A stretch of DNA of 44,753 bases from a virus. Its lineage: Duplodnaviria > Heunggongvirae > Uroviricota > Caudoviricetes. A program made the position numbers and the translations under genes. Each line of letters starts with the position of its first letter. Within the stretch, counting starts at the first letter, position 1. The stretch lies in the IMG/VR virus record IMGVR_UViG_2917860307_000001, positions 1 through 44,753 of that record. One strand, written 5' to 3'. A model generated the notes under the pieces. The model made no database searches and had not been told where the DNA came from. It worked only from the letters and a program-made list of their open reading frames with translations. Shown here piece by piece: positions 1-44,377 of the stretch.

Positions 1-474
1 ATGTACAGCCCGGTACAAATAGCCAATAAATTCATAACGTTGGGAAACCAACATCATAATCCTCTGACCCACATGCAACTGCAGAAGCTTACTTATATTG
101 CCCATGGTTACTATTTAGCATTAACAGGTAAGCCTTTGCTCAACGAATGTGTCTCTGCGTGGAAGTACGGTCCGGTTATTCCCGGAATGTACGATGCTTT
201 CAAAGATTATGGGAATAAGCCTGTTACGAATGTAGCAGTAGCTCCTTTTGGTGGCATTGTTACTATGGATCCGCAAGCAGAGAGCATTATAGGGGCTGTT
301 TATAAATTTTACGGCTCGAAAAATGGAATTGAGTTATCAACTCTAACTCATATGCCAGGTACGCCTTGGTCACAAACTTATAATGGTATTGGCTCGTCAA
401 TCATCCCAGATGATGCGATCAAGACTTATTATCATGATTTATTGAATAACCGACAGCAATGTCAGGGCCTCTGA
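1..474 (+). CDS. Panacea/DUF4065-like protein (SocA/GepA-like), putative antitoxin
   Basis: ORF beginning at window position 1 (ATG); N-terminal pattern YSPVQIANKFITLG...LTHMQLQKLTYIAHGYYLA resembles DUF4065/Panacea proteins; low-GC region; could extend upstream of the window. Confidence 0.5.
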   Translation: MYSPVQIANKFITLGNQHHNPLTHMQLQKLTYIAHGYYLALTGKPLLNECVSAWKYGPVIPGMYDAFKDYGNKPVTNVAVAPFGGIVTMDPQAESIIGAVYKFYGSKNGIELSTLTHMPGTPWSQTYNGIGSSIIPDDAIKTYYHDLLNNRQQCQGL

Positions 475-496
475 AAAAGTAATATTCAGGGATGAC

Positions 497-1045
497 ATGT
501 CTCGCAATTCAGATATCTATAAACTTATCGGAGCGGCTGCAGGTGTTGAAAATGGTCGCTCTGAAGCATCCTTAAACTATACTGACAGTCAAGAACAGGT
601 TTTTAAATCTGCATTTGAGCCGTCTAATCATGAGAGCGATGATGATTCTTCTTCAGAAAATAAAGCTATTCTGGAGGAAGAAGAGTTTGGTTCTAATACA
701 GGTGCATTGCATGAGTTTATGCAGCAGCACAGAATGGACAGTCTTCAAGCTCAGCTTGATATGCTCAAATCACAAGTACGCGATAAGATAGCTGACGCAA
801 CTGGTAAAGAAATAGACAATGAACTTCGGACAAAAATGGCATCATTCACGGTTTGGTTTATGTCGTGGTGGTGCTTATTTGTAGCCGTAATGTTTGTATC
901 GTTTCTTATTGCTCATGAAGGAAAGCCTCCAGTTGAAGCAATCGTTGCATTACTAGGTACAAGTACAATTAGCATTGTTGGTTTGGTTGGCTTCGTTGTT
1001 AGTGGATTGTTCAAATCAAGAAAAGATGGCGATAAAGAAAAATAA
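497..1045 (+). CDS. Hypothetical protein with acidic/coiled-coil N-terminus and two C-terminal transmembrane helices; putative toxin/effector partner
   Basis: 182-aa ORF 22 nt downstream of the Panacea-like gene; hydrophobic stretches FTVWFMSWWCLFVAVMFVSFLIA and AIVALLGTSTISIVGLVGFVVSGLF. Confidence 0.5.
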   Translation: MSRNSDIYKLIGAAAGVENGRSEASLNYTDSQEQVFKSAFEPSNHESDDDSSSENKAILEEEEFGSNTGALHEFMQQHRMDSLQAQLDMLKSQVRDKIADATGKEIDNELRTKMASFTVWFMSWWCLFVAVMFVSFLIAHEGKPPVEAIVALLGTSTISIVGLVGFVVSGLFKSRKDGDKEK

Positions 1046-2328: not shown

Positions 2329-2690
2329 TATGCTCCAGCCTCCGGTGCTTTCGGCATTACTGCCCAGTGAGTGATATTGACGTTTTCAAGGTCCCCGACC
2401 TGAAATGTCCACTGCCATTCTCCGGTTTCTTTTTGCCCCCAGGTGTACCAGAGAGAACGCCAGCCAATTAGCCAGCCTTCTCCGTTAGCATCGAATAACA
2501 AAACACTTTCATTTGCTGGTGGCAGTGCAGTTGACACTGGTATTACTTTGTTTTCCAGTGCCGCACATTTAGCTTCAAGCGCATCGAATTTACGCACCAG
2601 GTATTCAGCATCTGTTTCATTCACTTTCAGGTCTCGCGGTACACATCTCCCACGAAGAAACCCTTCCATTTCGAAAACATTCATGCGCAT
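2328..2690 (-). CDS. Phage hypothetical protein (YfdS-like, 120 aa)
   Basis: 120-aa ORF in same operon; position and size match yfdS of CPS-53-type prophages (from memory). Confidence 0.45.
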   Translation of the reverse strand: MRMNVFEMEGFLRGRCVPRDLKVNETDAEYLVRKFDALEAKCAALENKVIPVSTALPPANESVLLFDANGEGWLIGWRSLWYTWGQKETGEWQWTFQVGDLENVNITHWAVMPKAPEAGA

Positions 2691-3217
2691 TTGCGTAACT
2701 CCGATAACTCGTTAAAACGTTCCATAAACATCCCGTAGGCATGGCCCGGTGCCAGTGGAATCACTTTGAACATATCTGTTGCCGGGATACCTTCCAGTAC
2801 AGGCCAGAAAGAGCCATCATCAAGCCCGAGATCGCGGCGTTCGGTTGCCAGCATAATGAGATCGGCATATTTCACTGGCGTGCTCATAACCGGAGGTAAC
2901 CCGTATTTCTCACGGATTACGGCGTCTATTTTTTCTTCCATCCGTTTATAGTCAGGAAGAAGGCGTTTCAGTGGTGCGGGGATGTCCTGGCAATACGCTT
3001 CTGTTGCATCATGCATTAACGCTTCAAAAGCAAATTCCTGCGGCACCAGCTGGCTGCAAAGCACCGCATGTTGGGCGACGCTGTAGAAGTGAGAAAGATG
3101 ACCGGCAAAGCGGCAGATATTTGAAAGGGAAACCGCGATATCGTTAATAACGATGTCGTCTTTATTTATCTTGTCATAATAAAAATGCTTCCCGGAAAAA
3201 GTTTTAATAAATGACAT
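2681..3217 (-). CDS. yfdR: HD-domain 5'-deoxynucleotidase (YfdR-like)
   Basis: Start at MSFIKTF (ATG 3217, GGAG RBS) gives 178 aa; HD motif (LSHFYSVAQHAVL...MHDATEAY); matches K-12 YfdR size and family from memory. Confidence 0.65.
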   Translation of the reverse strand: MSFIKTFSGKHFYYDKINKDDIVINDIAVSLSNICRFAGHLSHFYSVAQHAVLCSQLVPQEFAFEALMHDATEAYCQDIPAPLKRLLPDYKRMEEKIDAVIREKYGLPPVMSTPVKYADLIMLATERRDLGLDDGSFWPVLEGIPATDMFKVIPLAPGHAYGMFMERFNELSELRKCA

Positions 3218-5266: not shown

Positions 5267-5941
5267 TTAGGCCTTTATTTTGTATCTTCTTGGTTTTCCC
5301 GAGAAAATCACTGTACCAATTATAGAGCAATTACCGTTGATCTTAATGTAAGGTTCAGGCCAGTTTGGGTTTAATGCTTTGAGGTAACGCTGTGTTCCAT
5401 CTTCTATCAACCGCTTGAAGGTGGTTTCGCCTGTATCGTGCATCAATGCAATAACGTCGTCACCGTGGCAGGCAGGGACTTCAGGATCAACAAAAATCAT
5501 GTCTCCCGGGCGGTACTCATCAATCATTGAATCACCAATCACCCGCAAGATATAAGTCATTTCGCCACAGGGTACAGGGCAGGGATAAGTTTCTGCTGTG
5601 CTCAAATCAACCTCAGAATAGCCAACTTCTTTCCATGCTCCGGCCTGTACCCATGATATGACAGGGACTAACGTTATTTGTTTGTTAGTGATTGAAACAT
5701 CAGGTTTTTTTGTGATGTTCGTTGTCTGGTGTTCTTGATCAAGCCATCCGACAGGCAGGTCGAAACATTTTTCGATGTGCCGTGCCATGCTGTCACCGAT
5801 ATTTTTAGTTGCACCATCTCCCATAAACCTGCTGGTCTGGGTTGGCTCGCGATCAATCATGGTGGCAAAGGAAGAATTCCCGCCAACACCATCTCTCAGT
5901 TTTCTGGCGTTAGACCGCCGGATGTCATGGACTGTTTTCAT
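5267..5941 (-). CDS. cI: CI-like repressor (HTH plus S24 LexA-like peptidase domain)
   Basis: 224 aa; N-terminal HTH region, C-terminal GDSM...catalytic-type motif; divergent from cro-like gene. Confidence 0.8.
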   Translation of the reverse strand: MKTVHDIRRSNARKLRDGVGGNSSFATMIDREPTQTSRFMGDGATKNIGDSMARHIEKCFDLPVGWLDQEHQTTNITKKPDVSITNKQITLVPVISWVQAGAWKEVGYSEVDLSTAETYPCPVPCGEMTYILRVIGDSMIDEYRPGDMIFVDPEVPACHGDDVIALMHDTGETTFKRLIEDGTQRYLKALNPNWPEPYIKINGNCSIIGTVIFSGKPRRYKIKA

Positions 5942-5956
5942 AATGAAATTAAAACC

Positions 5957-6026
5957 CTTGTACCGTTAAGGTACAAGTATCTTGAAGGTTCATTTTAATC
6001 ATGTAATATGTACATCGGAGGTACAT
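5957..6026. promoter_or_regulatory. Immunity operator/promoter region (OR-like) between cI and cro
   Basis: Inverted repeats CTTGTACC-N5-GGTACAAG (5957-5977) and ATGTAC-N7-GTACAT (6008-6026); candidate -35 TTGAAG and -10 TAATAT for rightward transcription. Confidence 0.45.
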
Positions 6027-6031
6027 ATTGT

Positions 6032-6232
6032 ATGAAAGCGTATTGGGACTCTTTAACCAAAGAACAGCAGGGCGAGTTGGCCGGAAAAGTTGGCTCAACA
6101 CCAGGCTACTTACGGCTGGTTTTCAATGGTTATAAAAAAGCCAGTTTTGTGCTGGCTAAAAAACTTGAGCAATGCACGTCAGGTGCAATTACGAAATCTG
6201 ACTTAAGACCGGATATCTATCCGAAAGATTAA
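6032..6232 (+). CDS. cro: Cro-like transcriptional regulator (YdaS-like)
   Basis: Start at MKAYWDSL (ATG 6032, GGAGGT RBS); 66 aa; divergent to cI. Confidence 0.6.
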   Translation: MKAYWDSLTKEQQGELAGKVGSTPGYLRLVFNGYKKASFVLAKKLEQCTSGAITKSDLRPDIYPKD

Positions 6233-6263
6233 CAGAACACCTTCAATTTTTAACCACAGAACG

Positions 6264-6827
6264 ATGAGGCTAACCGTGGGTAAGCATCACTGGAAAGTAG
6301 AAAAACAGCCTGAGTGGTACGTGAAAGCTGTCAGAAAAACTATCGCGGCGTTGCCGGGGGGGTACGCTGAAGCTGCTGAGTGGCTGGATGTAACAGAGAA
6401 CGCTTTATTCAACCGCCTTCGTGCAGATGGCGATCAGATTTTCCCGCTGGGATGGGCAATGATTTTACAGCGCGCGGCTGGCACTCACTACATTGCGGAT
6501 GCTGTCGCACAGTCTGCTGGTGGGGTGTTTGTATCGCTTCCTGAAATTGAGGAAGTGGAGAACGCCGATATAAACCAGCGCCTGCTGGAAGTCATCGAAC
6601 AGATCGGGAGTTACTCAAAGCAGATTCGTTCGGCAATCGAAGATGGGGTAGTGGAGCCACACGAGCAGACAGCAATTAATGATGAGTTGTATCTGTCAAT
6701 TTCGAAGCTCCAGGAGCATGCAGCACTGGTCTACAAAATCTTTTGCGCTCCAGAAAAGAGTGACGCCCGCGAGTGTGCAGCTCCGGGCGTCGTGGCGTTT
6801 TGTGTCTGTGGAGAAACTAACGCATGA
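6264..6827 (+). CDS. CII-like / YdaT-family regulatory protein
   Basis: 187-aa ORF immediately after cro; family call tentative. Confidence 0.45.
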   Translation: MRLTVGKHHWKVEKQPEWYVKAVRKTIAALPGGYAEAAEWLDVTENALFNRLRADGDQIFPLGWAMILQRAAGTHYIADAVAQSAGGVFVSLPEIEEVENADINQRLLEVIEQIGSYSKQIRSAIEDGVVEPHEQTAINDELYLSISKLQEHAALVYKIFCAPEKSDARECAAPGVVAFCVCGETNA

Positions 6828-7660
6828 ACAGTTTAACGGCAAATAACCGTTTGTCGCAACAGCAGGTGGTCAGCGTCGCTGAACACCTGTTGTTACGGCA
6901 TGAATGCAGATTACCAAATCACCTGGCTGTAAGTAACCACAGAGAACTTTACCTGACTGTGGGGGGCGAGTTGTGCAGGAACTTAACCGCTGGTTTCGTG
7001 ACGGAAGAGGGCTTTATGTCCATGTTATTCGTTGGGAGCCAGAAACACAGCGCGTTATCTATCTTCGCAAAGACTACCCGCATGAGTGTTTTAGTCCTTT
7101 GTGGAAATTCAGGCGTGATTTTGTTGAGTGTGAAGGACCACCAGCACATTGATTCTGCCATTCCGGGACGTTACACTGTTCAGGCACCTTATAAAGCGGG
7201 TGCCGGGATTGGCGTCCTGGAAATGTTATCGGCGATATATGACGCGCCAGCGTCTTTTTTATCGTCTGCGTCTGCGCACACCCAAATTATGGTGGGCTGG
7301 ACGGGGGCACCGAAAGGTGCGCCGGTTTCCGATAACGCCGGTTACGCCAACCCCGTTCAGTTCACCACCAGCGAAATTGGCGTTTCCGGTGGTGAAGGTA
7401 ATTCACTGTTATCGGAGGCTGCCATCATGGCTACTGTCCCAGCCCTCTCTCGTCTGAATGATGAAGACTTACATAAACTCAGTTATGTAACAACTGCACT
7501 ACGTGCTCTGCGCAAGGTAACTCTTTCGGATCCGCAGGCGCATCAGGTTCTGGTAGAAACCCTTCTTAACTTGCAGGCTGAACGTATTCGTCTGGCGGAT
7601 AAGGCTAATTTTCATATTCACCGTCTCCTGAATATCAGCGGAGGGCATCGTCATGCTTAA
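6824..7660 (+). CDS. Hypothetical protein (possibly YdaU-like); frame integrity uncertain
   Basis: 278-aa ORF; a protein-like 59-codon alternative-frame ORF (6973-7152) begins at a G6 run at 6961-6966. Confidence 0.35.
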   Translation: MNSLTANNRLSQQQVVSVAEHLLLRHECRLPNHLAVSNHRELYLTVGGELCRNLTAGFVTEEGFMSMLFVGSQKHSALSIFAKTTRMSVLVLCGNSGVILLSVKDHQHIDSAIPGRYTVQAPYKAGAGIGVLEMLSAIYDAPASFLSSASAHTQIMVGWTGAPKGAPVSDNAGYANPVQFTTSEIGVSGGEGNSLLSEAAIMATVPALSRLNDEDLHKLSYVTTALRALRKVTLSDPQAHQVLVETLLNLQAERIRLADKANFHIHRLLNISGGHRHA

Positions 7661-7889
7661 TCCGTTGATCCTCAATATTTGCCGTTTGCTTCAGCGTAAA
7701 AAAACATCAATTCCTACAGTTGGGCAGTGGTACACCACGCCTGCAGGGCATGTTCTACGTGTTAGCCTGGTTGACCGTGAATGTCAGAAGGTGATTTGTG
7801 AACCGCTGGGCCGTAATTACCGAGTCAGTATGCCGCTTATAGCCTTTTGCTCCGGAAAAAACATGAAGCATCTCGGAGGTGCAGCATGA
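7653..7889 (+). CDS. Hypothetical protein
   Basis: 78-aa ORF in the rightward early operon. Confidence 0.3.
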   Translation: MLNPLILNICRLLQRKKTSIPTVGQWYTTPAGHVLRVSLVDRECQKVICEPLGRNYRVSMPLIAFCSGKNMKHLGGAA

Positions 7890-8704
7890 GTATGGAGCTG
7901 ATGGTTAAAGCGATGAAAATTCGAGTGGGTAATCCATTGCGAAAACTGGTTCTGATCAAGCTGGCTGATAATGCCAGCGATCAGGGTGAGTGCTGGCCCA
8001 GCTACCAGCATATTGCTGACCAGTGCGAGATTAGCAAACGTTCTGTGATGAATCATATTGCGGCCCTTTGTGAGTCCGGGCTGGTAAAAAAAGTCACCCG
8101 GAAAGGTGAAAAAGGTAACTCAAGTAATATCTATCTCCTTCATCTGGATGGTGCAGGAGATTCACTAGGGGGTAGTGCAAATAATTCACTATCTGGTGCA
8201 GCAAATTCACCAGGTAGTGCAGGAGTTGCACCAGGGGGTAGTGCAGGAGATTCACCCAGAACCAGTCACTCTTTTGAACCAGTCAAAGAACCAGTCAATG
8301 AACCAATAGCTGTTGGTGAATCTGCTGATGAGTCTGTGCGGGTTCGTTCAAACCGACCGGAATACTCTCCGGAGTTTGAACAGGCATGGCTGGCATATCC
8401 CAAACGTGCTGGTGGCAATTCAAAATCTGCAGCCTTCAAAGCCTGGAAAGCCCGTTTGAATGAGGGGGTAAACCCCGAAACCATGCTGGAAGGTGTGAAA
8501 CGCTACGCGGGCTGGATATCTGCGATGGGTAACAGCGGCACACAATTTGTTAAACAGGCTGTCACGTTCTTTGGTCCGGATCGTCATTTCGAAGAATCCT
8601 GGGAAGTTCCTGCGGTATCGGCAGCCAGATGCGAAGACCCGTACTTCAAAGCCAGTTACAACAATGTGGACTACAGCCAGATCCCGGCAGGATTCAGGGG
8701 GTGA
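7886..8704 (+). CDS. Phage replication initiation protein (N-terminal HTH, Gly/Ser-rich linker)
   Basis: Start at MSMELMVKAMK (ATG 7886, GGAGGTG RBS); N-terminal helix-turn-helix resembling phage replication proteins; imperfect DNA repeats encode the GS linker. Confidence 0.6.
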   Translation: MSMELMVKAMKIRVGNPLRKLVLIKLADNASDQGECWPSYQHIADQCEISKRSVMNHIAALCESGLVKKVTRKGEKGNSSNIYLLHLDGAGDSLGGSANNSLSGAANSPGSAGVAPGGSAGDSPRTSHSFEPVKEPVNEPIAVGESADESVRVRSNRPEYSPEFEQAWLAYPKRAGGNSKSAAFKAWKARLNEGVNPETMLEGVKRYAGWISAMGNSGTQFVKQAVTFFGPDRHFEESWEVPAVSAARCEDPYFKASYNNVDYSQIPAGFRG

Positions 8705-8706
8705 GC

Positions 8707-9192
8707 ATGAGCCTGATGAGTGAGATTCAAAAATTCATTGAAAGCAATCCTGGATGTACGACCGGTGATATTGCGAATGCGTTTGCATACTTTCCACGTC
8801 CCCGTGTACTGAATACGACCCGTAAGTTACGCCAGTGCAGACGTGTCGCTTATCGCAGTGAAGGCAAAACACACAGGCATTTTTCTCGCAAGGCTGTGTT
8901 GCCACCTGAGCCGGTGCTGAAGCATATGAGTGTGGCCAGTAAAAGCTACGTCGGCACTAATGATCAGCGGGTGATTTTGCGCCTGATTCAGCAGGCAGAA
9001 GATCTGGAGTCCAGAGGTTTATTCCGTCGTGCTGCAACGGTGTGGATGGAGGCATTCCGTGAAAGCCACTCCCAGTCAGAACGAAACAATTTTCTGGCGC
9101 GCGTGAGCGGTGCTTACGGAAAAGCAGCAAGCGCGCTGTATCGGGTGATGAGTGGTATCTGTCAGGGAATTACGTGGGGGCTTAATGAGTAA
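8707..9192 (+). CDS. PerC-family-like regulator / hypothetical protein
   Basis: Start ATG 8707; C-terminal motif LESRGLFRRAATVWMEAFRESHSQSERNNF resembles PerC-like activators. Confidence 0.4.
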   Translation: MSLMSEIQKFIESNPGCTTGDIANAFAYFPRPRVLNTTRKLRQCRRVAYRSEGKTHRHFSRKAVLPPEPVLKHMSVASKSYVGTNDQRVILRLIQQAEDLESRGLFRRAATVWMEAFRESHSQSERNNFLARVSGAYGKAASALYRVMSGICQGITWGLNE

Positions 9193-9838
9193 TAAATATT
9201 GCCAGGCGCTGGTGGAGCTGCGAAACAAACCAGCCCATGAACTGAAGGAAGTGGGCGATCAGTGGCGCACGCCGGACAACATTTTCTGGGGAATTAACAC
9301 CCTGTTTGGCCCGTTTGTTCTGGATCTGTTCACTGACGGTGATAACGCCAAATGTGCCGCGTATTACACGGCGGAAGACAACGCGCTGGCGCATGACTGG
9401 TCAGAACGTCTTGCGGAGCTTAAAGGTGCTGCCTTTGGTAATCCCCCATACAGCCGCGCCAGTCAGCATGAGGGGCAATACATCACCGGCATGCGTTACA
9501 TCATGAAACATGCCAGTGCCATGCGTGATAAGGGCGGGCGCTATGTTTTCCTGATCAAAGCTGCCACCAGCGAAGTGTGGTGGCCGGAAGACGCAGACCA
9601 TATTGCTTTTATTCGCGGGCGTATTGGTTTTGAACTGCCTGCCTGGTTTATCCCGAAGGATGAGAAGCAGGTGCCGACAGGCGCTTTCTTCGCTGGTGCT
9701 ATTGCTGTTTTCGACAAGACCTGGAAGGGAGCGGCAATCAGCTACATCGGGCGCGATGAACTTGAGGCATGTGGTGAGGCCTTTCTGGCGCAGGTTCGCC
9801 AGCAGGCTGAAAAACTGGTCAGGGAGATGGCGGCATGA
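9185..9838 (+). CDS. Phage Dam-like DNA N6-adenine methyltransferase
   Basis: Start MSNKYCQ (ATG 9185); NPPY catalytic motif (AAFGNPPYSR). Confidence 0.7.
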   Translation: MSNKYCQALVELRNKPAHELKEVGDQWRTPDNIFWGINTLFGPFVLDLFTDGDNAKCAAYYTAEDNALAHDWSERLAELKGAAFGNPPYSRASQHEGQYITGMRYIMKHASAMRDKGGRYVFLIKAATSEVWWPEDADHIAFIRGRIGFELPAWFIPKDEKQVPTGAFFAGAIAVFDKTWKGAAISYIGRDELEACGEAFLAQVRQQAEKLVREMAA

Positions 9839-10161
9839 CGACGTTAACTCAATGCCAGCAGCAGGTGCTGGATATGCTGATTTCTTACCAGAAAGAGCGT
9901 GGCTTTCCGCCAACCAATCAGGAGGTGGCAACCATGCTGGGATACCGTTCAGTGAATGCAGCGGTAGAGCATCTTCGCGCACTGGAGAAAAAAGGCGTCA
10001 TCACGATAAAGCGTGGCGTGGCCCGGGGGATAACGCTTCATACCGCGGTGAAGGACGACGACAGCGAGGCGGTCGGGATTATCCGCGCACTGCTTGCCGG
10101 TGAGGAAAACGCAAGGCTGCGTGCAACCCACTGGTTACATGAGAGGGGCCTGAAAGTATGA
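9835..10161 (+). CDS. LexA N-terminal DNA-binding-domain protein (no peptidase domain)
   Basis: 108 aa; QQVLDMLISYQKERGFPPTNQEVATMLGYRSVNAAVEHLRALEKKGVITI closely parallels the LexA N-terminal domain (recalled from memory). Confidence 0.6.
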   Translation: MTTLTQCQQQVLDMLISYQKERGFPPTNQEVATMLGYRSVNAAVEHLRALEKKGVITIKRGVARGITLHTAVKDDDSEAVGIIRALLAGEENARLRATHWLHERGLKV

Positions 10162-10547
10162 AGCTGATCCTGCCTTTTCCGCCCAGCGTGAACACGTACT
10201 GGCGACACCCCAACAAAGGGGCGTTTGCTGGTAAGAGTCTGATAAGCGCAGCGGGGCGCAAATTCCAGAGCGCGGCGTGCGCAGCAATAGTTGAGCAGTT
10301 ACGTCGTCTGCCGAAACCAACGTCGGCACCTGCTTCAGTGGAGATCGTGTTGTTTCCTCCGGATAACCGGATCCGCGATCTGGACAACTATAACAAGGCG
10401 ATGTTTGACGCCCTGACCCACGCGGGTGTGTGGGAAGACGACAGTCAGGTGAAAAGAATGCTGGTTGAGTGGGGACCGGTTATCCCGGGAGGGAAGGTCG
10501 AGATCACTATCAGTAAGTACGAGAAAACGGCGGGTGCAGCCGCCTGA
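10158..10547 (+). CDS. rusA: Holliday junction resolvase RusA
   Basis: 129 aa; typical RusA sequence (LPFPPSVNTYW...D.DNY.KA..DAL). Confidence 0.8.
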   Translation: MKLILPFPPSVNTYWRHPNKGAFAGKSLISAAGRKFQSAACAAIVEQLRRLPKPTSAPASVEIVLFPPDNRIRDLDNYNKAMFDALTHAGVWEDDSQVKRMLVEWGPVIPGGKVEITISKYEKTAGAAA

Positions 10548-10566
10548 TTAAGAGGAGAAACGAAGT

Positions 10567-11376
10567 ATGAATAATCTGATGGTCATTGATGGTATTGAAG
10601 TTCGTCGTGATGCTTATGGGCGTTACAGCCTGAACGATCTGCACAGGGCAGCCGGGGGAGAACAAAAAAACCGCCCGAAATACTGGCTCTCCAATAAGCA
10701 AACCTGTGAATTGATTGAACAACTTTTCACCGAGGGTGGAATTCCGCCTCTGGAACAAAATCAACCAGTTAGCGTCATTAATGGCGGAAATAACCAGGGG
10801 ACGTATGTCTGCAAAGAACTGGTGTATGCCTATGCAATGTGGATCAGCCCGTCATTCCATCTGAAGGTGATCCGTACTTTCGATATGGTAACCAGCGCAC
10901 CGGAAAAATTATCCGGGCAGGCTGCTGACAAGATGCAGGCTGGAGTGATTCTGCTGGACTTTATGCGCCGGGAGTTAAACCTGTCTAACTCTTCAGTGCT
11001 TGGTGCCTGTCAGAAACTCCAGGAGGCTGTTGGCTTACCGAATCTGGCACCGCGCTATGCCATTGATGCTCCTGCTGATGCACACGATGGCTCAAGTCGC
11101 CCGACACTGTCACTGAGTGCACTGCTGAAACAGTATGGTATCCGCCTGACGGCTAATCAGGCATATCACCAGATGGTGAAGCTGGGGATCGTCGAGCAGC
11201 GCGAACGATACAGCCGTACCGCGATTAACAACATCAAAAAATTCTGGTTGCTGACAGCGAAAGGCTGCATGTTCGGCAAGAACATCACCAGTCCCGCCAA
11301 TCCGCGCGAGACGCAGCCGCATTTCTTCGAATCCCGATTCCCTGAGCTGTTAAAGCTGCTCGATACCGTTCATTGA
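10567..11376 (+). CDS. KilA-N domain protein
   Basis: N-terminal KilA-N pattern (VIDGIEVRRDAYGRYSLNDL...AMWISPSFHLKV). Confidence 0.6.
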   Translation: MNNLMVIDGIEVRRDAYGRYSLNDLHRAAGGEQKNRPKYWLSNKQTCELIEQLFTEGGIPPLEQNQPVSVINGGNNQGTYVCKELVYAYAMWISPSFHLKVIRTFDMVTSAPEKLSGQAADKMQAGVILLDFMRRELNLSNSSVLGACQKLQEAVGLPNLAPRYAIDAPADAHDGSSRPTLSLSALLKQYGIRLTANQAYHQMVKLGIVEQRERYSRTAINNIKKFWLLTAKGCMFGKNITSPANPRETQPHFFESRFPELLKLLDTVH

Positions 11377-11377
11377 G

Positions 11378-12373
11378 GTGACCGTGAGAGCACTACTGAC
11401 CCCTGAAATTGCCCCGCGTATGGGGATCGTATTGTTCAGGCCAGGTTCAGAGCTGATGCCCCTGTTTATGCAGGGGCGTGTCCTGCTGGAGCCTGAGCCG
11501 GAACGTTATTCATCTTTCGCCAGTGGTGCCGTTCCGGCGGCATCACAACCGCTGGCGGATGATCCTGCCGTTCGGGCCGTGTTCCGCAATGAGGCAGTGA
11601 TCCGTCGTGCTGGTGGCGTGGAATGTCTTGAAAGCTGGTTACTTCGTGAAAAAGGCTGCCAATGGCCTCATTCCGACTGGCACAGCGAGAACATGACCAC
11701 AATGCGACACGCTCCGGGCGCAATCCGTCTGTGCTGGCACTGCGATAACCAGCTGCGCGATCAGTTCACGGAACGGCTGGAATCAATGGCAACGGATAAC
11801 TGTGCCCGCTGGGTGTTGTCTGTAGTCCGTCGGGATCTCGGTTTTGATGATAACCATGCCGTGACAATGCCGGAACTGTGCTGGTGGCTGATTCGTAATG
11901 ACCTGGCGGATGCCTTACCTGAAAGCGCAGCCCGTAAGGCGCTGAGATTACCGAAACCTGCTGTGCCGTCTGTCACCCGGGAAAGTGACCTTGTGCCTTC
12001 GGTTCCTGCCACCAGCATCATCCAGGATAAAGCGAAAAATGTGCTGGCGCTGAAAGTGGATCCGGAGTCGCCGGAGTCTTTTATGTTACGCCCAAAACGC
12101 CGCCGCTGGGTTAATGAAAAGTACACGCGCTGGGTTAAGACACAGCCGTGTGCATGTTGTGGAAAGCCTGCTGATGATCCCCACCACCTGATAGGCCACG
12201 GTCAGGGTGGAATGGGTACAAAAGCGCATGACCTCTTTGTGTTGCCTTTGTGCAGAAAGCATCACGACGAGCTGCATGCGGATACCGTGGCATTTGAAGA
12301 GAAGTATGGCTCTCAGCTGGAGCTGATATTTCGTTTTATCGATCGTGCGCTGGCAATTGGCGTATTGGCGTAA
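11378..12373 (+). CDS. DUF968 domain protein
   Basis: GTG start; C-terminal Cys/His cluster PCACCGKPADDPHHLIGHG...LPLCRKHHDELH typical of DUF968 nin-region proteins. Confidence 0.6.
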   Translation: MTVRALLTPEIAPRMGIVLFRPGSELMPLFMQGRVLLEPEPERYSSFASGAVPAASQPLADDPAVRAVFRNEAVIRRAGGVECLESWLLREKGCQWPHSDWHSENMTTMRHAPGAIRLCWHCDNQLRDQFTERLESMATDNCARWVLSVVRRDLGFDDNHAVTMPELCWWLIRNDLADALPESAARKALRLPKPAVPSVTRESDLVPSVPATSIIQDKAKNVLALKVDPESPESFMLRPKRRRWVNEKYTRWVKTQPCACCGKPADDPHHLIGHGQGGMGTKAHDLFVLPLCRKHHDELHADTVAFEEKYGSQLELIFRFIDRALAIGVLA

Positions 12374-12386
12374 GTGGAGAACGAGC

Positions 12387-12941
12387 ATGAACCTTGAAGC
12401 CTTACCAAAATATTACTCCCCAAAATCTCCAAAATTGAGCGATGACGCACCGGCGACAGGCTCAGGTGGTTTAACGATTACGGATGTGATGGCTGCGCAG
12501 GGGATGGTGCAGTCGAAAGCACCGCTTGGGTTTGCCTTATTCCTGGCAAAAGTTGGTGTTCAGGATCCTCAATTTGCGATTGAAGGTCTGCTCAATTACG
12601 CGATGGCACTGGATAACCCGACATTGAACAAATTGAGTGAAGAAACCCGGTTACAGATCATCCCTTACCTTGTGAATTTTGCCTTTGCTGATTATTCCAG
12701 GTCTGCGGCAAGTAAGGCTCGCTGTGAGCATTGTGCTGGTACTGGATTTCATAATGTATTGCGCGAAGTGGTGAAACACTCCAGAAGCGGGGAATCTGTT
12801 ATCAAGGAAGAGTGGGTGAAGGAACTATGTCAGCATTGCCATGGTAAGGGAGAAGTCAGCACAGCGTGCAGAGGGTGTAAGGGTAAAGGTATTGTCCTGG
12901 ATGAAAAAAAGAACCCGGCTTCATGGTGTGCCTGTTTATAA
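12387..12941 (+). CDS. Antitermination protein Q (as read, terminates early; see downstream +1-frame fragment)
   Basis: Start MNLEALPKYY (ATG 12387); three CxxCxGxG zinc-finger repeats; position upstream of PR'-like promoter and lysis genes. Confidence 0.6.
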   Translation: MNLEALPKYYSPKSPKLSDDAPATGSGGLTITDVMAAQGMVQSKAPLGFALFLAKVGVQDPQFAIEGLLNYAMALDNPTLNKLSEETRLQIIPYLVNFAFADYSRSAASKARCEHCAGTGFHNVLREVVKHSRSGESVIKEEWVKELCQHCHGKGEVSTACRGCKGKGIVLDEKKNPASWCACL

Positions 12942-13140
12942 GATTTGTGGGCGTTGCAATGGCAACCGGTTTAGCCGTTTACCAACCACACTGGCGCGGC
13001 ATCATGTCCAGAAACTGGTACCGGACCTGACGGATTATCAGTGGTACAAAGGATATGCAGACGTTATTAATAAACTGGTTACAAAGTGCTGGCAGGAAGA
13101 AGCGTATGCTGAATCGCAATTGAGAAAAGTGACAAGATAG
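12901..13140 (+). CDS. Probable C-terminal fragment of antiterminator Q in the +1 frame
   Basis: Overlapping ORF in +1 frame beginning at the A7 run (12904-12910); carries a fourth CxxCxG repeat (CGRCNGNR). Confidence 0.35.
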   Translation: MKKRTRLHGVPVYKICGRCNGNRFSRLPTTLARHHVQKLVPDLTDYQWYKGYADVINKLVTKCWQEEAYAESQLRKVTR

Positions 13141-13171
13141 ATAATTTTCGCCGAAGATGTCGACGTGATGC

Positions 13172-13200
13172 TTGCATTTTTCAAAAAATATGGATAAGAT
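13172..13200 (+). promoter_or_regulatory. Late promoter PR'-like
   Basis: -35 TTGCAT, 17-nt spacer, -10 TAAGAT directly downstream of Q and about 45 nt upstream of a terminator. Confidence 0.45.
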
Positions 13201-13242
13201 TTTCTCAACGATGGGCCTTGTATGTCTACCGTTGGTAAATGT

Positions 13243-13268
13243 CAAAAACCCGCTGCTGAGCGGTTTTT
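13243..13268 (+). terminator. tR'-like rho-independent terminator
   Basis: AACCCGCT-GCTG-AGCGGTT hairpin (one-base bulge) followed by T7. Confidence 0.55.
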
Positions 13269-13428
13269 TTGTGCCTGATGTCTCATGAAACTATGAAATG
13301 GATTGGTGCGTTAAACATTTTTTCTTATTATCTTTTAGATTTTGGAGAGATGGTTAACGTCTGTATTCCAGAAACTCGATGGTTATTTAATAAATTAGTT
13401 TCAATGATGCTTCTAGGTTATGACTGTA

Positions 13429-13827
13429 ATGAAAAAGGTATTAATAGCAGCGATAGGTTTTTGTTTAGTTGGTTGTGCAGGTATGAAATTACCTGAGTAT
13501 TCGCAAGTTAAAGCAAGTCCGTATTATACAGATTGCCGTGCGTTTGCCATGGATGTTTATAAAAATGATGGATACAGCAAAATTGCGAAAACTACTATCC
13601 TTAGCATGGATGATGTGAAGGCTAGATATATTGTGACAGGGTGTGTAGTTGCTATGGGGAAAAACACTGTAGAGGAAATCAAAGCTGATCTCTCTGCTAA
13701 AGGGAGTTCTTTTGGGCTTATCAGTGGAGCTTGTTCTAGTGTGGCATGTCGGGTTGATGTAGAGCAGCAAATGAACGCTTATGTACTTGGTAGTTATTAT
13801 GCTGCAAATAAAAAAATTCCCGGATAA
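13429..13827 (+). CDS. Lipoprotein (moron)
   Basis: Signal peptide with lipobox MKKVLIAAIGFCLVGCAG; markedly low-GC gene flanked by terminators; alternative start at 13420. Confidence 0.6.
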   Translation: MKKVLIAAIGFCLVGCAGMKLPEYSQVKASPYYTDCRAFAMDVYKNDGYSKIAKTTILSMDDVKARYIVTGCVVAMGKNTVEEIKADLSAKGSSFGLISGACSSVACRVDVEQQMNAYVLGSYYAANKKIPG

Positions 13828-13922
13828 AATGAAAGCAGAGTTTTAAGCAAACCTTGTTTTCGATTATATGTCGAAGATAAATGTTAGTAACGGCATAATA
13901 AGTAAATATATAGCTGTGATAG

Positions 13923-13948
13923 CAACCCGCCACTGAGCGGGTTTTTTG
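13923..13948 (+). terminator. Rho-independent terminator
   Basis: AACCCGC-CACTGA-GCGGGTT hairpin followed by T6; near-copy of the terminator at 13243. Confidence 0.55.
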
Positions 13949-14069
13949 TACCCGTAAACTTGGTGCAGTACAGTAAACACGCTGGTGGTCGTGAATACTG
14001 ACTTTTTATCTTGCTGGCTTTTTAGACAAGAGTTATTGGTATGTCATGTTAACCAGAAGGGAAAAAGAC

Positions 14070-14273
14070 ATGCTAAAACAGCAAGATATGACAGAAACCG
14101 CCGCCGCAGTCCTTCATTTCTTACCTGCTGACAAGTGGGTAACGCCACGCATGATGACGAGAACTACCGGAGTAAGCGAAGCCCGGTGCCAGTTAATACT
14201 GACTCAGTTAGTTCTGGCGGGTCTGGCGAAGGATAACGGCGGGTACGGGAATAAATTCAGACGCTGCCAGTAA
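14070..14273 (+). CDS. Small putative DNA-binding protein (winged-helix-like)
   Basis: Start MLKQQDMTE (ATG 14070, AAGGGA RBS); 67 aa. Confidence 0.35.
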   Translation: MLKQQDMTETAAAVLHFLPADKWVTPRMMTRTTGVSEARCQLILTQLVLAGLAKDNGGYGNKFRRCQ

Positions 14274-14423
14274 TGGCGGTTTCCTGCTGTGAAAATGGGC
14301 GGCTGGTGGGTGTTGGTAGCACGTGCCAGCCATTCGCTCATGCTTACTGGTCACAAGCGAACCACGGCCCACTGCTTTAGCGCAAAAGCAGAGTGAGCCT
14401 ACCAGAGTTACGCTTACTGATCC

Positions 14424-15476
14424 ATGAAAAATACTGTAAAAATAAACAGTGTTGATTTAATCAACGCTGATTGCCTGCATTTTATTCAGTCCCTGCCTGA
14501 TGATTCCATTGACCTGATTGTTACCGATCCGCCGTACTTCAAGGTGAAACCCAACGGCTGGGACAATCAGTGGAAAGGGGACGAAGATTACCTTAAGTGG
14601 CTGGACCACTGTCTGGCCCAGTTCTGGCGGGTGTTAAAACCTGCCGGAAGCCTTTACCTGTTCTGTGGGCATCGCCTGGCATCTGATATTGAGATCATGA
14701 TGCGTGAACGTTTCAACGTGCTTAACCATATCATCTGGGCGAAGCCGTCCGGACGTTGGAATGGGTGTAATAAAGAAAGTCTGCGCGCATATTTTCCTGC
14801 CACAGAGCGCGTTCTGTTTGCTGAACATTACCAAGGGCCATATCGCGGCAAAAGTGACGGCTATGCGGCAAAAGAAAGGGAACTCAAACAGCACATAATG
14901 GCACCGCTGATATCGTATTTCAGGGATGCTCGTGCCGAACTGGGTATAACGGCAAAACAAATTGCCGAAGCCACAGGTAAGAAAAATATGGTTTCCCACT
15001 GGTTTGGTGCCAGTCAGTGGCAGTTGCCGAATGAGGCTGACTATCGGAAGTTACAGGCACTGTTTTCCCGTATAGCGGCAGAGAAGTTTCAGGAACAACA
15101 ACTGGAACAACCACACCACCAGCTGGTGGCATCTTATGATTCACTGAATCGCAAATATTCTGAATTGCTGGATGAGTTTAAATCTCTCCGGCGCTATTTC
15201 TCCGTATCAGTCTCCGTGCCTTATACCGATGTCTGGATGCATAAACCCGTTCAGTTCTACCCGGGTAAACATCCGTGTGAGAAACCGGCGGATATGCTCA
15301 GGCAAATAATCAATGCCAGTAGTCGACCTGGTGATCTGGTTGCTGATTTTTTTATGGGATCCGGTTCCACAATAAAAGCAGCAATGGCGCTGGGGCGTCG
15401 GGCCTTAGGTGTTGAGCTTGAGTCAGAGCGGTTTAACCAGACAGTGAAAGAGATAAACGAGCTGGTGGGGAAATAA
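14424..15476 (+). CDS. Orphan DNA methyltransferase (N6-adenine/N4-cytosine family, DPPY motif)
   Basis: 350 aa; motif IVTDPPYF near the N-terminus and a C-terminal AdoMet-binding-like region (DFFMGSGST). Confidence 0.8.
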
Positions 15477-41843: not shown

Positions 41844-42092
41844 TTAATGAACAAACCACTCGTCAGCAGACTCCCAGGTATCTTTCAGAGTTTCCTGAAC
41901 AAAAGTTTTAGCTGAATCTTTATCGGCGGTGCGCGTAACAGAAAGGCCATCGTTGCTGGTGGCTTTTACGATCACCTCTACATCGTCATAACGCTTACTG
42001 ATGCGTCGAGTTAATTCTTCCTTCAACGCATCCACAGCACCGTTTGGCATTTTAGTCATTTTCTCTTTGGCTATGCAGATCTCAATACGCAT
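41844..42092 (-). CDS. dinI: DinI-like DNA damage-inducible protein
   Basis: 82 aa; MRIE..IAK...P.GA.DAL..EL.RRI......V....A..N.LSV......D......ETWESAD.WFV pattern matching DinI. Confidence 0.75.
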
Positions 42093-42105: not shown

Positions 42106-42125
42106 TACTGTGTTTGTATACAGTA
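42106..42125. promoter_or_regulatory. LexA (SOS) box upstream of the dinI-like gene
   Basis: TACTGT-GTTTGTAT-ACAGTA, a CTGT-N8-ACAG palindrome 14 nt upstream of the dinI-like start. Confidence 0.6.
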
Positions 42126-42153
42126 TTATTTTTAACTGTATGAATAAACAGTG

Positions 42154-43251
42154 TCAAGAGGTCTTATTTCTGCTCCTTTGGAGTTCTTCAAAACGATTAT
42201 GTAAAGATTTTGGATACAGTTCGGTATATACCTGCCATAGCACGTTTAATGAACGATGCCCTGTAACCTGGGCGACTTCCTCAATACTAAAACCAGCCTC
42301 AAATAAGCGACTTGCCCCTTCTCTACGCAAATCATGGTATCGCAGATCTTTAATACCTAATTTGCTTCTTACCCTCTGAAATCCTGCGGTAACAGAAGTG
42401 CTGTTGTATGGAAAAATGAATTCAGATTTTTTGGGTTGTCGTTGGACGATATCCCAGGCTTCCCCAAGCAAGGCCACTTTCATATGGTTACCTTCCTTTT
42501 TACGTGGATCTTTCCTGTCTCTTACTAGTATAGATTTTTGTTCCTGGTCGAGATCTTCCCATCGTAACCGGCATACTTCTCCGATTCGCATACAGGACCA
42601 CACAGAAAATTTGAGGATATCAACGAACGGAATTTTTGAGCATTTATGAGTAGATCGTTGTTGAAGGCCTTCAATGAGCATGTCTAGTTCATCAGATGCT
42701 GGTCTACGATTACGACGATTTGATTTACCAATTAAACCAAGTTTAAGTAGATATGGACGAGCGGCTTTTGCTGGGTTTGATGTGTAATTAATTCCGTATA
42801 CAGGTTTGGCTGCATCCAGAACACTGCCAAGATAACTAACATCGTGGCTAACAGTAGCTGGACCTGCACCGGCGTTGTTTCTCAACCTGCAATGTTCTAT
42901 TACGTCATTTTCTGTTAATTCAGATAGTCTGATCGCAGAAATGTCACTATCCATAAGTAGTTCCAGCACATATCTTTTAGTGCGGCCTGCTTTACCTCCT
43001 GCATTTGGATCATTTAAATATTTGTGTAGCAAATCACGGACAGTAAGGCCGTCAATCTCGCTTGATGATGGGATTCCATACAAATCTAGTTCCATCACTT
43101 TCTGTGTACCCCATGTTTTGGCATGAGCATGTTTGGGAAAGGTTTTACTTTCCCTGTAAGTGATGACACCTTTTTCTTTAATAATCACGGTGCAACGATA
43201 GCGTGGTGTGCCATCGGATTTTAGCCGTTTCTCTATGTTATAGTACGCCAT
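42154..43251 (-). CDS. int: Tyrosine integrase (dusA-associated type)
   Basis: 365 aa; C-terminal catalytic-region pattern (R...HDLRR...VTGHRSL...Y); adjacent to and divergent from dusA. Confidence 0.85.
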   Translation of the reverse strand: MAYYNIEKRLKSDGTPRYRCTVIIKEKGVITYRESKTFPKHAHAKTWGTQKVMELDLYGIPSSSEIDGLTVRDLLHKYLNDPNAGGKAGRTKRYVLELLMDSDISAIRLSELTENDVIEHCRLRNNAGAGPATVSHDVSYLGSVLDAAKPVYGINYTSNPAKAARPYLLKLGLIGKSNRRNRRPASDELDMLIEGLQQRSTHKCSKIPFVDILKFSVWSCMRIGEVCRLRWEDLDQEQKSILVRDRKDPRKKEGNHMKVALLGEAWDIVQRQPKKSEFIFPYNSTSVTAGFQRVRSKLGIKDLRYHDLRREGASRLFEAGFSIEEVAQVTGHRSLNVLWQVYTELYPKSLHNRFEELQRSRNKTS

Positions 43252-43339: not shown

Positions 43340-44377
43340 ATGCACGATAATCATGAAACACAAAAAATTAATCAAACCAGCGTGATGCCTGAAAAAACTG
43401 GTGTTTACTGGAATTCTCGGTTTAGCATTGCTCCTATGCTCGACTGGACGGACAGACACTGCCGTTATTTCCTGCGTCTGCTCTCCCGTAATACGCTGCT
43501 CTATACCGAAATGGTGACCACAGGGGCGATTATTCACGGTAAAGGTGATTACCTGGCATACAGTGAAGAAGAGCATCCGGTGGCGTTGCAGTTGGGCGGT
43601 AGCGATCCGGCGGCGCTGGCGCAGTGTGCGAAGCTGGCAGAAGCGCGCGGATATGATGAGATCAACCTGAATGTTGGCTGCCCGTCAGACCGGGTACAGA
43701 ACGGCATGTTTGGCGCGTGCCTGATGGGGAATGCGCAACTGGTGGCTGACTGCGTAAAAGCGATGCGCGACGTAGTGTCGATTCCAGTGACGGTGAAAAC
43801 GCGTATTGGCATTGACGACCAGGACAGCTATGAATTTCTCTGTGATTTTATCGACACTGTTTCCGGCAAAGGCGAATGCGAGATGTTTATTATCCATGCG
43901 CGCAAAGCCTGGCTTTCTGGTTTAAGTCCGAAAGAAAACCGTGAGATCCCGCCGCTCGATTACCCGCGTGTCTATCAACTGAAGCGTGATTTCCCGCATC
44001 TGACTATGTCGATTAACGGCGGCATCAAGTCACTGGAAGAGGCTAAAGCACACCTGCAACATATGGATGGCGTGATGGTCGGGCGTGAAGCGTATCAAAA
44101 CCCAGGCATTCTGGCGGCGGTGGATCGAGAGATATTTGGTTCCTCGGATACCGATGCCGATCCGGTGGCGGTGGTACGAGCTATGTATCCGTACATTGAG
44201 CGTGAACTCAGCCAGGGGACGTATCTCGGTCATATCACCCGGCATATGCTGGGGCTGTTCCAGGGGATTCCTGGTGCGCGGCAGTGGCGGCGGTATTTAA
44301 GTGAAAATGCCCATAAAGCGGGCGCTGACATTAACGTGCTGGAACATGCGCTCAAACTGGTAGCGGATAAGCGTTAA
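43340..44377 (+). CDS. dusA: tRNA-dihydrouridine synthase A
   Basis: 345 aa; conserved [17 protein letters not shown]... DusA sequence; first approx 30 residues look prophage-derived. Confidence 0.9.

Follow-up and report, generated by a model that had tools for sequence, protein, structure and literature searches.

A stand-alone LexA DNA-binding domain with a conserved C-terminal hairpin in the early operon of a lambdoid prophage

What use does a temperate phage make of the DNA-binding half of LexA when the self-cleaving half is missing? The question is raised by a gene at positions 9835 to 10161 of IMG/VR record IMGVR_UViG_2917860307_000001, a lambdoid prophage adjoining dusA; all 44,753 nucleotides of the record (positions 1 to 44,753) were analysed and are referred to here as the window. 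A first-pass annotation took the 108-amino acid product to be an uncleavable repressor that could act at LexA boxes or pair with the LexA protein of the host. The reading that we tentatively prefer is that of a LexA-derived regulator that dimerizes through a C-terminal hairpin of its own, has diverged in operator specificity, and is made together with the antiterminator Q during lytic development.

Domain content and fold

The protein consists of a LexA-type winged helix-turn-helix (residues 1-68), a short flexible linker and a two-helix tail (residues 74-103), which lie in the window as follows.

9835..10161, plus strand: gene of the 108-amino acid LexA-domain protein (ATG start; PHROG 362; RefSeq name 'LexA family protein')
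9835..10038, plus strand: LexA-type winged helix-turn-helix domain, residues 1-68 (AlphaFold2 helices 6-22, 28-35 and 40-52; wing strands 56-58 and 66-68)
9952..9990, plus strand: recognition helix, residues 40-52 (VNAAVEHLRALEK), from the phmmer alignment to E. coli LexA
10054..10143, plus strand: C-terminal helical hairpin, residues 74-103 (helices 74-88 and 93-103), family-specific

The gathering threshold of the Pfam model LexA_DNA_bind (PF01726) is passed across the entire domain, residues 1-65 matching model positions 1-65 of 65 (E 2.9e-19; 69 bits against a cut-off of 23.7). Among solved structures, the sequence comes closest to 1lea, the DNA-binding domain of E. coli LexA (E 6e-16), and to full-length LexA (E ~1e-15), and identity to E. 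coli LexA is 51% over residues 1-69. An AlphaFold2 model built from a 21-sequence family alignment (mean predicted local distance difference test score, pLDDT, 84) has the three helices and two-stranded wing of the LexA-type fold, and its best Foldseek match is the DNA-bound LexA N-terminal domain 3jso_B, with a root-mean-square deviation (rmsd) of 1.0 Å over 68 residues at 50% identity. The linker at residues 69-73 is modeled with low confidence; over residues 81-100 the block mean pLDDT is 88-91.

No Pfam match to Peptidase_S24 was found in the protein, whose chain ends at residue 108 with the sequence …ERGLKV. The LexA N-terminal-like product lacking an S24 domain that had been proposed is thus borne out by PF01726, by the fold model and by the chain end, and because the missing domain holds the Ser119/Lys156 dyad, RecA-stimulated self-cleavage should be impossible and the protein would be insensitive to activated RecA, as had also been proposed. 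The NCBIfam lexA equivalog TIGR00498 is matched at model positions 1-91 of 203 only, and the score of 70.5 bits falls below the cut-off of 110.95.

HMMER aligned residues 78-90 (EAVGIIRALLAGE) with LexA 74-86 (EGLPLVGRVAAGE), matching 'AGE' and placing Ala88-Gly89 opposite the scissile Ala84-Gly85 of LexA, which suggests that the protein descends from a LexA shortened just past the cleavage region. The same alignment, which reaches LexA residue 86, and the TIGR00498 match to position 91 could be taken to mean that the protein acts on other proteins rather than on DNA, either by pairing with host LexA or by offering residues 78-90 as a decoy to the active site of LexA, CI or UmuD. We consider this highly improbable. 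LexA dimerizes via its C-terminal domain (PMC3091678), which is the part that is missing, and the proposed heterodimer with host LexA is unsupported for the same reason. The Ala-Gly pair is lost in distant family members, which have E-R, T-R, D-D, A-E or A-D instead, and the segment is confidently predicted as a helix rather than an extended strand; a cleavage-site or decoy role for Ala88-Gly89 is therefore unlikely, and the protein lacks any catalytic domain that could use the pair.

The hairpin defines a prophage family

The C-terminal part of the protein is conserved in its own right. PHROG 362, labeled 'transcriptional repressor', is matched over its full length (profile positions 1-106 of 106, E 1.2e-59) with the two-helix module included, and relatives down to approximately 40% identity were found in two large protein collections, coming from Escherichia, Salmonella, Citrobacter, Cronobacter, Klebsiella, Enterobacter, Atlantibacter and Hafnia. 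Retrieved proteins were aligned to the family profile, and 105 cluster representatives possessing both the winged helix-turn-helix and the C-terminal hairpin form the family set used below; conservation of the hairpin was scored over 17 clusters non-redundant at 80% identity. Intact members are approximately 105-135 amino acids long and share invariant S39, R64-G65, A97 and L101. Within the hairpin, A97 and L101 are invariant in 17 of 17 clusters, an aromatic residue at position 100 and R94/R96 are also kept, as are hydrophobic positions 82, 83, 86 and 87, and these residues make two amphipathic helices. The C-terminal 35 or so residues are a conserved family module and no leftover linker, and the proteins form a distinct family of Enterobacterales prophages, descended from the N-terminal half of LexA, that is not merely a broken LexA.

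The hairpin probably takes the place of the LexA C-terminal domain, as an element for dimerization or for binding a partner, since it is too small to bury its amphipathic face alone. A dimerization role is also favored because many winged helix-turn-helix repressors dimerize through helices that follow the wing, and weak fold matches to BlaI-like and MntR-like proteins point the same way. Dimerization is the most likely capacity in which the tail would stand in for the lost domain.

The family is already annotated and very widespread, and with it the 108-amino acid protein joins the stand-alone LexA-domain proteins of phages, which turn up often among predicted structures of viral proteins. 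Of 5426 complete E. coli genomes, 2233 carry an annotated copy of the gene, and DNA that is 100% identical occurs in E. coli genomes under the label 'LexA family protein/transcriptional regulator'. Phages with the gene include SfII, SfV, mEp460, cdtI and the Stx2a/Stx2c-converting (Shiga toxin-converting) phages; the 'bully phage' 1720a-02 carries it too, and the interference of that phage with another prophage has been mapped to Cro. Databases call the family 'LexA family protein', 'LexA DNA binding domain protein', 'LexA family transcriptional regulator' or 'transcriptional repressor', and a genomics paper on Stx phages lists it as 'pham 237, LexA family regulator' with no functional study. 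A full-text literature search found no experimental study of the family. Some phage genomes (e.g., LR595868, KF030445 and AB285204) bear the labels 'SOS-response repressor and protease LexA' or 'RecA-mediated autopeptidases' where no peptidase domain is present, and on the 108-amino acid protein such protease labels look like annotation carried over from LexA. A separate group of proteins (P0132, P0133, P0148, P0151, P0153, P0155, P0156 and P0159) has two tandem LexA DNA-binding domains per chain and no S24 domain; these could read a palindromic operator as single-chain pseudo-dimers.

DNA-reading residues compared with LexA

In E. coli LexA, DNA is contacted by S39, N41, A42, E44 and E45 (PMC3091678). 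Alignment to LexA, the check that had been suggested for these residues, gives S39, N41, A42, V44 and E45 in the 108-amino acid protein; four of the five are kept, whereas E44 is replaced by Val. The R64-G65-I66 wing motif of LexA is kept as well, R28 is replaced by Asn, and position 7 is Cys, compared with Arg in LexA and in 15 of the 17 family clusters. The family was compared with 36 LexA-like matches that have a cleavage-site or catalytic-serine motif, a biased set in that it consists of the best matches to the 108-amino acid query.

S39: family 105 of 105; LexA-like 36 of 36
N41: family 103 of 105; LexA-like 36 of 36
A42: family 90 of 105; LexA-like 36 of 36
E45: family 65 of 105 (Asp in 28); LexA-like 23 of 36
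E44: family 0 of 105 (V, A, T, N, L, F, R or Y instead); LexA-like 34 of 36
R28: family 0 of 105; LexA-like 35 of 36
R28 and E44 jointly: family 0 of 105; LexA-like 34 of 36

The loss across the whole family of two residues that are nearly constant in LexA argues for an altered, possibly diversified, DNA specificity. Subfamilies vary at position 44 (V/A/T/N/L/F) and at position 45 (E/D/L), the Klebsiella members reading NAVLLH, with Leu-Leu at 44-45, and such variation would be expected if specificities had diverged.

These replacements bear directly on an alternative in which the protein would be a RecA-insensitive surrogate of LexA that binds canonical SOS boxes and closes them again in lytic growth, thereby silencing the SOS genes of the prophage, dinI among them, as well as the SOS regulon of the host and the antirepressors that LexA controls in rival prophages. 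We think this unlikely. That E44 and R28 are absent from all 105 family members, when both are present in 34 of the 36 LexA-like matches, is difficult to reconcile with it, as are the Cys in place of Arg7 in the 108-amino acid protein and the Leu-Leu pair of the Klebsiella members, even though the DNA-binding domain is 51% identical to that of LexA and S39, N41, A42 and E45 are in place. The original suggestion of action at LexA boxes is thus weakened: the four retained contact residues speak for it, whereas the loss of E44 and R28 and the precedent of a phage LexA homolog that binds a palindrome of its own (gp6 of GIL01, discussed below) stand against it.

Judged by its sequence, the 108-amino acid protein falls outside the LexA repressor proper, missing the TIGR00498 cut-off, the S24 domain and E44 alike. 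Loss of R28 and E44 with gain of the C-terminal hairpin provides a diagnostic that separates the family from true LexA and a warning against transferring the LexA annotation to PHROG 362.

Place in the prophage

The surroundings of the gene in the window are listed here from left to right.

1..474: Panacea-domain (SocA/Panacea antitoxin-domain) gene at the left end
right of the Panacea gene and left of the CI-like repressor: leftward early genes
5267..5941, minus strand: CI-like repressor with S24 domain
between the CI-like repressor and Dam, in order: CII-like gene, Ash gene, replication gene, PerC-like gene
9152..9838, plus strand: Dam N6-adenine methyltransferase (Pfam Dam, E 6.4e-45); its stop overlaps the ATG at 9835 (ATGA)
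10158..10547, plus strand: RusA Holliday-junction resolvase (Pfam); its ATG overlaps the stop at 10159-10161 (ATGA)
between RusA and DUF968/HNH: KilA-N gene (Pfam)
11378..12941, plus strand: DUF968/HNH gene and Q antiterminator gene (Q at 12345..12941; Pfam)
14424..15476: N6_N4 DNA methyltransferase gene, between Q and the lysis genes
right of the N6_N4 methyltransferase: lysis, head and tail genes
41844..42092, minus strand: dinI-like gene (82 amino acids; Pfam DinI, E 1.2e-19)
42154..43251, minus strand: integrase
43340..44377: dihydrouridine synthase gene (dusA), adjoining the integrase

A consensus scan detected no promoter-like site in front of the 108-amino acid gene and, between 7254 and 12061, no plus-strand terminator-like site save one weak 5-pair match at 9003. 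The gene is part of a long rightward early operon upstream of Q; it lacks a promoter of its own, and its translation is coupled to that of Dam and RusA. With ATGA overlaps on both sides and no nearby promoter or terminator, it should be silent in the lysogen; from this position the protein would be made only after inactivation of the prophage repressor or on infection, alongside the late-gene activator Q.

The RusA neighbor is kept across most of the family (loci L002-L008 and L015-L017). At 40-60% protein identity, in metagenomic, Cronobacter, Salmonella and other loci, the family gene is followed by RusA, then by an antirepressor-like gene (KilA-N or pRha/ANT) and by DUF968 and Q, and in all loci examined it is accompanied by DUF968/HNH and Q. 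Such company could mean that the protein binds DNA as an accessory to nin-region recombination or replication, in partnership with RusA, the DUF968 HNH-like protein or both, and exerts no transcription control. It would then resemble the small Fis-like NinH, which in phage lambda adjoins the Rap resolvase. The translational coupling to RusA, the presence of RusA directly downstream or no more than two genes away in most subfamilies, the constant occurrence of DUF968 within approximately three genes and the failure of a palindrome scan to find an operator (below) all fit an accessory role. Lambdoid nin regions, though, keep the order of many unrelated genes, the Klebsiella arrangement does without RusA, and near-invariant S39, N41 and A42 suggest base-specific reading, and we hold the accessory role to be quite doubtful. 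Membership in a defense system was rejected, PADLOC giving only a weak winged helix-turn-helix match.

The prophage seems to sit in the dusA integration site; KP63, a related E. coli prophage, has zur on the other side. At the left end of the window, the Panacea gene stands beside a partner gene for 182 amino acids with no Pfam match (window 1-1045). Upstream of the KP63 Panacea gene, outside the window, there are three SOS-box-like sites (L001 860-983; 20.4, 19.6 and 16.7 bits), and the Panacea gene and its partner may be a LexA-controlled toxin-antitoxin-like module.

SOS boxes and the search for an operator

A regulator with the DNA-binding domain of LexA invites a search for LexA-like sites, and the window is rich in them: a pattern search for CTGT-N8-ACAG found four where 0.56 were expected. 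Candidate boxes were scored with a position-weight matrix built on E. coli operators, which is a heuristic only, and three are strong, at 42106-42125, 42134-42153 and 14432-14451.

42106..42153, minus strand: two SOS boxes, TACTGTGTTTGTATACAGTA and AACTGTATGAATAAACAGTG, one on either side of the dinI promoter (22.7 and 22.8 bits; the training operators have a lower median)

The -35 element of the dinI promoter, TTGACA, lies at 42157..42152, and the LexA box that had been noted upstream of the dinI-like gene is a pair of strong boxes. The third, TACTGTAAAAATAAACAGTG at 14432-14451 (22.8 bits), falls within codons 3-9 of the N6_N4 methyltransferase gene. Three Salmonella prophage loci (L015-L017) have an identical site, which says little, as the whole region is 96% conserved. 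The fourth CTGT-N8-ACAG match, at 6927, scores below 10 bits and is probably no functional box. Near it, just past the CII-like gene, is a 49-bp imperfect palindrome (6852-6900; 24-nucleotide arms, 83% complementary) that may serve as a terminator, as an origin or in regulation. Boxes also occur elsewhere in related prophages: a near-perfect one, TACTGTTTATAAATACAGTA (26.5 bits), is at L002 2836-2855 of a metagenomic prophage, inside the CI-like S24 repressor gene (2369..3064, minus strand), and a strong one (24.9 bits) is at L007 12164-12183 of an Enterobacter prophage, between a lysozyme gene and a minus-strand gene for 202 amino acids.

Three strong boxes in the prophage, the standing of the SOS box as its most over-represented spaced palindrome and the additional SOS-like sites that precede the left-end Panacea gene in KP63 would suit a protein that substitutes for LexA. 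Host LexA by itself fully explains the boxes of the window, which are thus compatible with such a substitute and do not speak for it; those at dinI are host-LexA sites and no more than candidate targets of the 108-amino acid protein. Neither is the gene bound to dinI. The phage collection has 92 records with the dinI cassette and 50 with the 108-amino acid gene, and their overlap is large but incomplete: the gene is present and the dinI cassette missing in five Shigella phage records, and the converse is true of 19 Stx1a phage records. Strict linkage to dinI is rejected, and this independence in E. coli and Shigella phages is a further point against a LexA substitute aimed at dinI.

Several observations weigh against the diverged specificity that we prefer. 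No candidate operator of its own came to light: a scan of 14,080 spaced-palindrome architectures over the window yielded the SOS box as the only standout, ACTGT-N8-ACAGT being the most over-represented with 3 occurrences against 0.04 expected (Bonferroni-corrected p 0.18), and among short inverted repeats in 5900-14500 only the operators of the immunity region emerged. The gp6-type operator core CACANNTGTG was tried and is absent from the window, with none found against 1.2 expected. Finally, with S39, N41 and A42 near-invariant and E45 often kept, the sequence is such that a CTGT-like half-site may still be read.

Klebsiella and Enterobacter relatives

The relatives of the gene in Klebsiella and Enterobacter connect the family with the SOS response. 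The Klebsiella member P0297 (1017 member sequences) has 130 amino acids, is 43% identical, and matches PHROG 362. In its prophage (L009 5362-8243), a canonical promoter containing the 27-bit SOS box TACTGTTTATTTATACAGTA drives an operon in the order dinI, a small open reading frame with a GTG start (phrog_1813), the family gene, an open reading frame for 67 amino acids, DUF968 and a Q-like antiterminator gene; RusA is absent. The Enterobacter arrangement (L007 7505-10413) consists of a terminator, the SOS box ACCTGTACATTCATACAGTA, the phrog_1813 open reading frame, the family gene, RusA, DUF968 and Q. In both of these SOS-box-headed operons, a phrog_1212 open reading frame follows the LexA-domain gene. 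The repressor of the Enterobacter prophage is a 128-amino acid helix-turn-helix protein with no S24 domain, and therefore the small open reading frame may be an antirepressor.

In some phages, then, the family gene is directly SOS-induced and tied to dinI, and the sequences imply that late-gene activation in the Klebsiella and Enterobacter prophages would be directly under LexA control. The supposed link with dinI accordingly holds for the single SOS-box-headed operon of Klebsiella and breaks down in the E. coli and Shigella phages, where the two are separable. A canonical SOS box in front of the family gene, with dinI, might seem to recommend the protein as a LexA substitute; but the same Klebsiella promoter drives the Q-like gene, so self-repression at that box would oppose lytic growth, which argues against simple SOS-box repression. 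The Klebsiella gene order also suggested that the family might be the 'IrsA' of Gifsy prophages. This was rejected: the gene in that slot of Gifsy-2, STM1020, is a DUF1367 protein (E 4e-98) with no significant similarity.

Interpretation

The mechanism that we envisage, on the strength of sequence and predicted structure, is as follows. A dimer held together by the two-helix tail would read DNA through the winged helix-turn-helix as a sequence-specific regulator, its specificity shifted away from the canonical SOS box in the manner of GIL01 gp6, and it would be no simple surrogate of LexA.

A more far-reaching proposal is that prophages in approximately 40% of E. coli strains, including Stx-converting phages, supply a RecA-proof LexA surrogate that reoccupies SOS boxes after induction, or else a protein that holds SOS-regulated phage promoters open against returning LexA as a commitment switch; it seems to us rather unlikely. 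Were the first of these true, the protein would shut the host SOS regulon, the dinI, methyltransferase and left-end Panacea module of its own prophage, and the antirepressors, colicins and toxins that LexA controls in competitors. Any action at SOS-controlled promoters would have a bearing on prophage induction, Shiga-toxin release and the competition of co-resident prophages. If, as we prefer, the protein has an operator of its own, it would be one more regulator of the lambdoid early-to-late transition.

Comparison with known systems

The N-terminal domain of E. coli LexA (1lea and 3jso) shares with the 108-amino acid protein the winged helix-turn-helix fold, S39, N41, A42, E45 and R64-G65-I66. 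The phage protein differs in lacking the S24 domain, through which LexA both cleaves itself and dimerizes, in having Asn in place of R28, Val in place of E44 and Cys in place of R7, and in its extra two-helix tail. LexA is an autoregulated host gene, whereas the phage protein is encoded in an early operon.

The 1-84 cleavage fragment of LexA resembles the phage protein in that it has the DNA-binding domain of LexA without the C-terminal one. In studies by Kim and Little in 1992 and Neher et al. in 2003, the fragment is said to keep weak, cooperative operator binding. Its DNA affinity is lower, and it is rapidly degraded by ClpXP and Lon once cleavage exposes the targeting residues (PMC3159453). 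The phage protein ends in a different terminus (…ERGLKV) and has a tail of its own.

In Gifsy prophages, a LexA-controlled operon comprises dinI, an antirepressor gene and irsA (PMC3121763). The family genes of Klebsiella and Enterobacter are found in an equivalent slot (terminator, SOS box, dinI in some cases, small open reading frame, family gene) upstream of resolvase and Q genes; the slot gene of Gifsy-2, however, is of a different family, and dinI in the window is at the opposite end of the prophage.

Repressors of the BlaI/MecI, MntR and MarR types likewise have a winged helix-turn-helix followed by helices and give weak full-length Foldseek matches (e.g., 2g9w, 104 aligned columns). With a template modeling (TM) score of approximately 0.5, an rmsd of approximately 7 Å and no sequence relationship, they serve as an analogy for dimerization only.

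The closest parallel to our preferred reading is gp6 of GIL01, a tectivirus of Bacillus thuringiensis, a truncated LexA homolog that binds the palindrome GaCACAnnTGTGaC and activates the late promoter (PMC6182141). Both are LexA DNA-binding domains of temperate phages, lack the catalytic domain and are encoded in an early operon, gp6 being made after SOS induction (PMC6182141). By its published description, on which this comparison is based, gp6 is shorter, has no helical tail and comes from a tectivirus of a Gram-positive host. The late genes of GIL01 are activated by gp6 at the late promoter, whereas those of the prophage in the window depend on the Q antiterminator, alongside which the 108-amino acid protein would be made.

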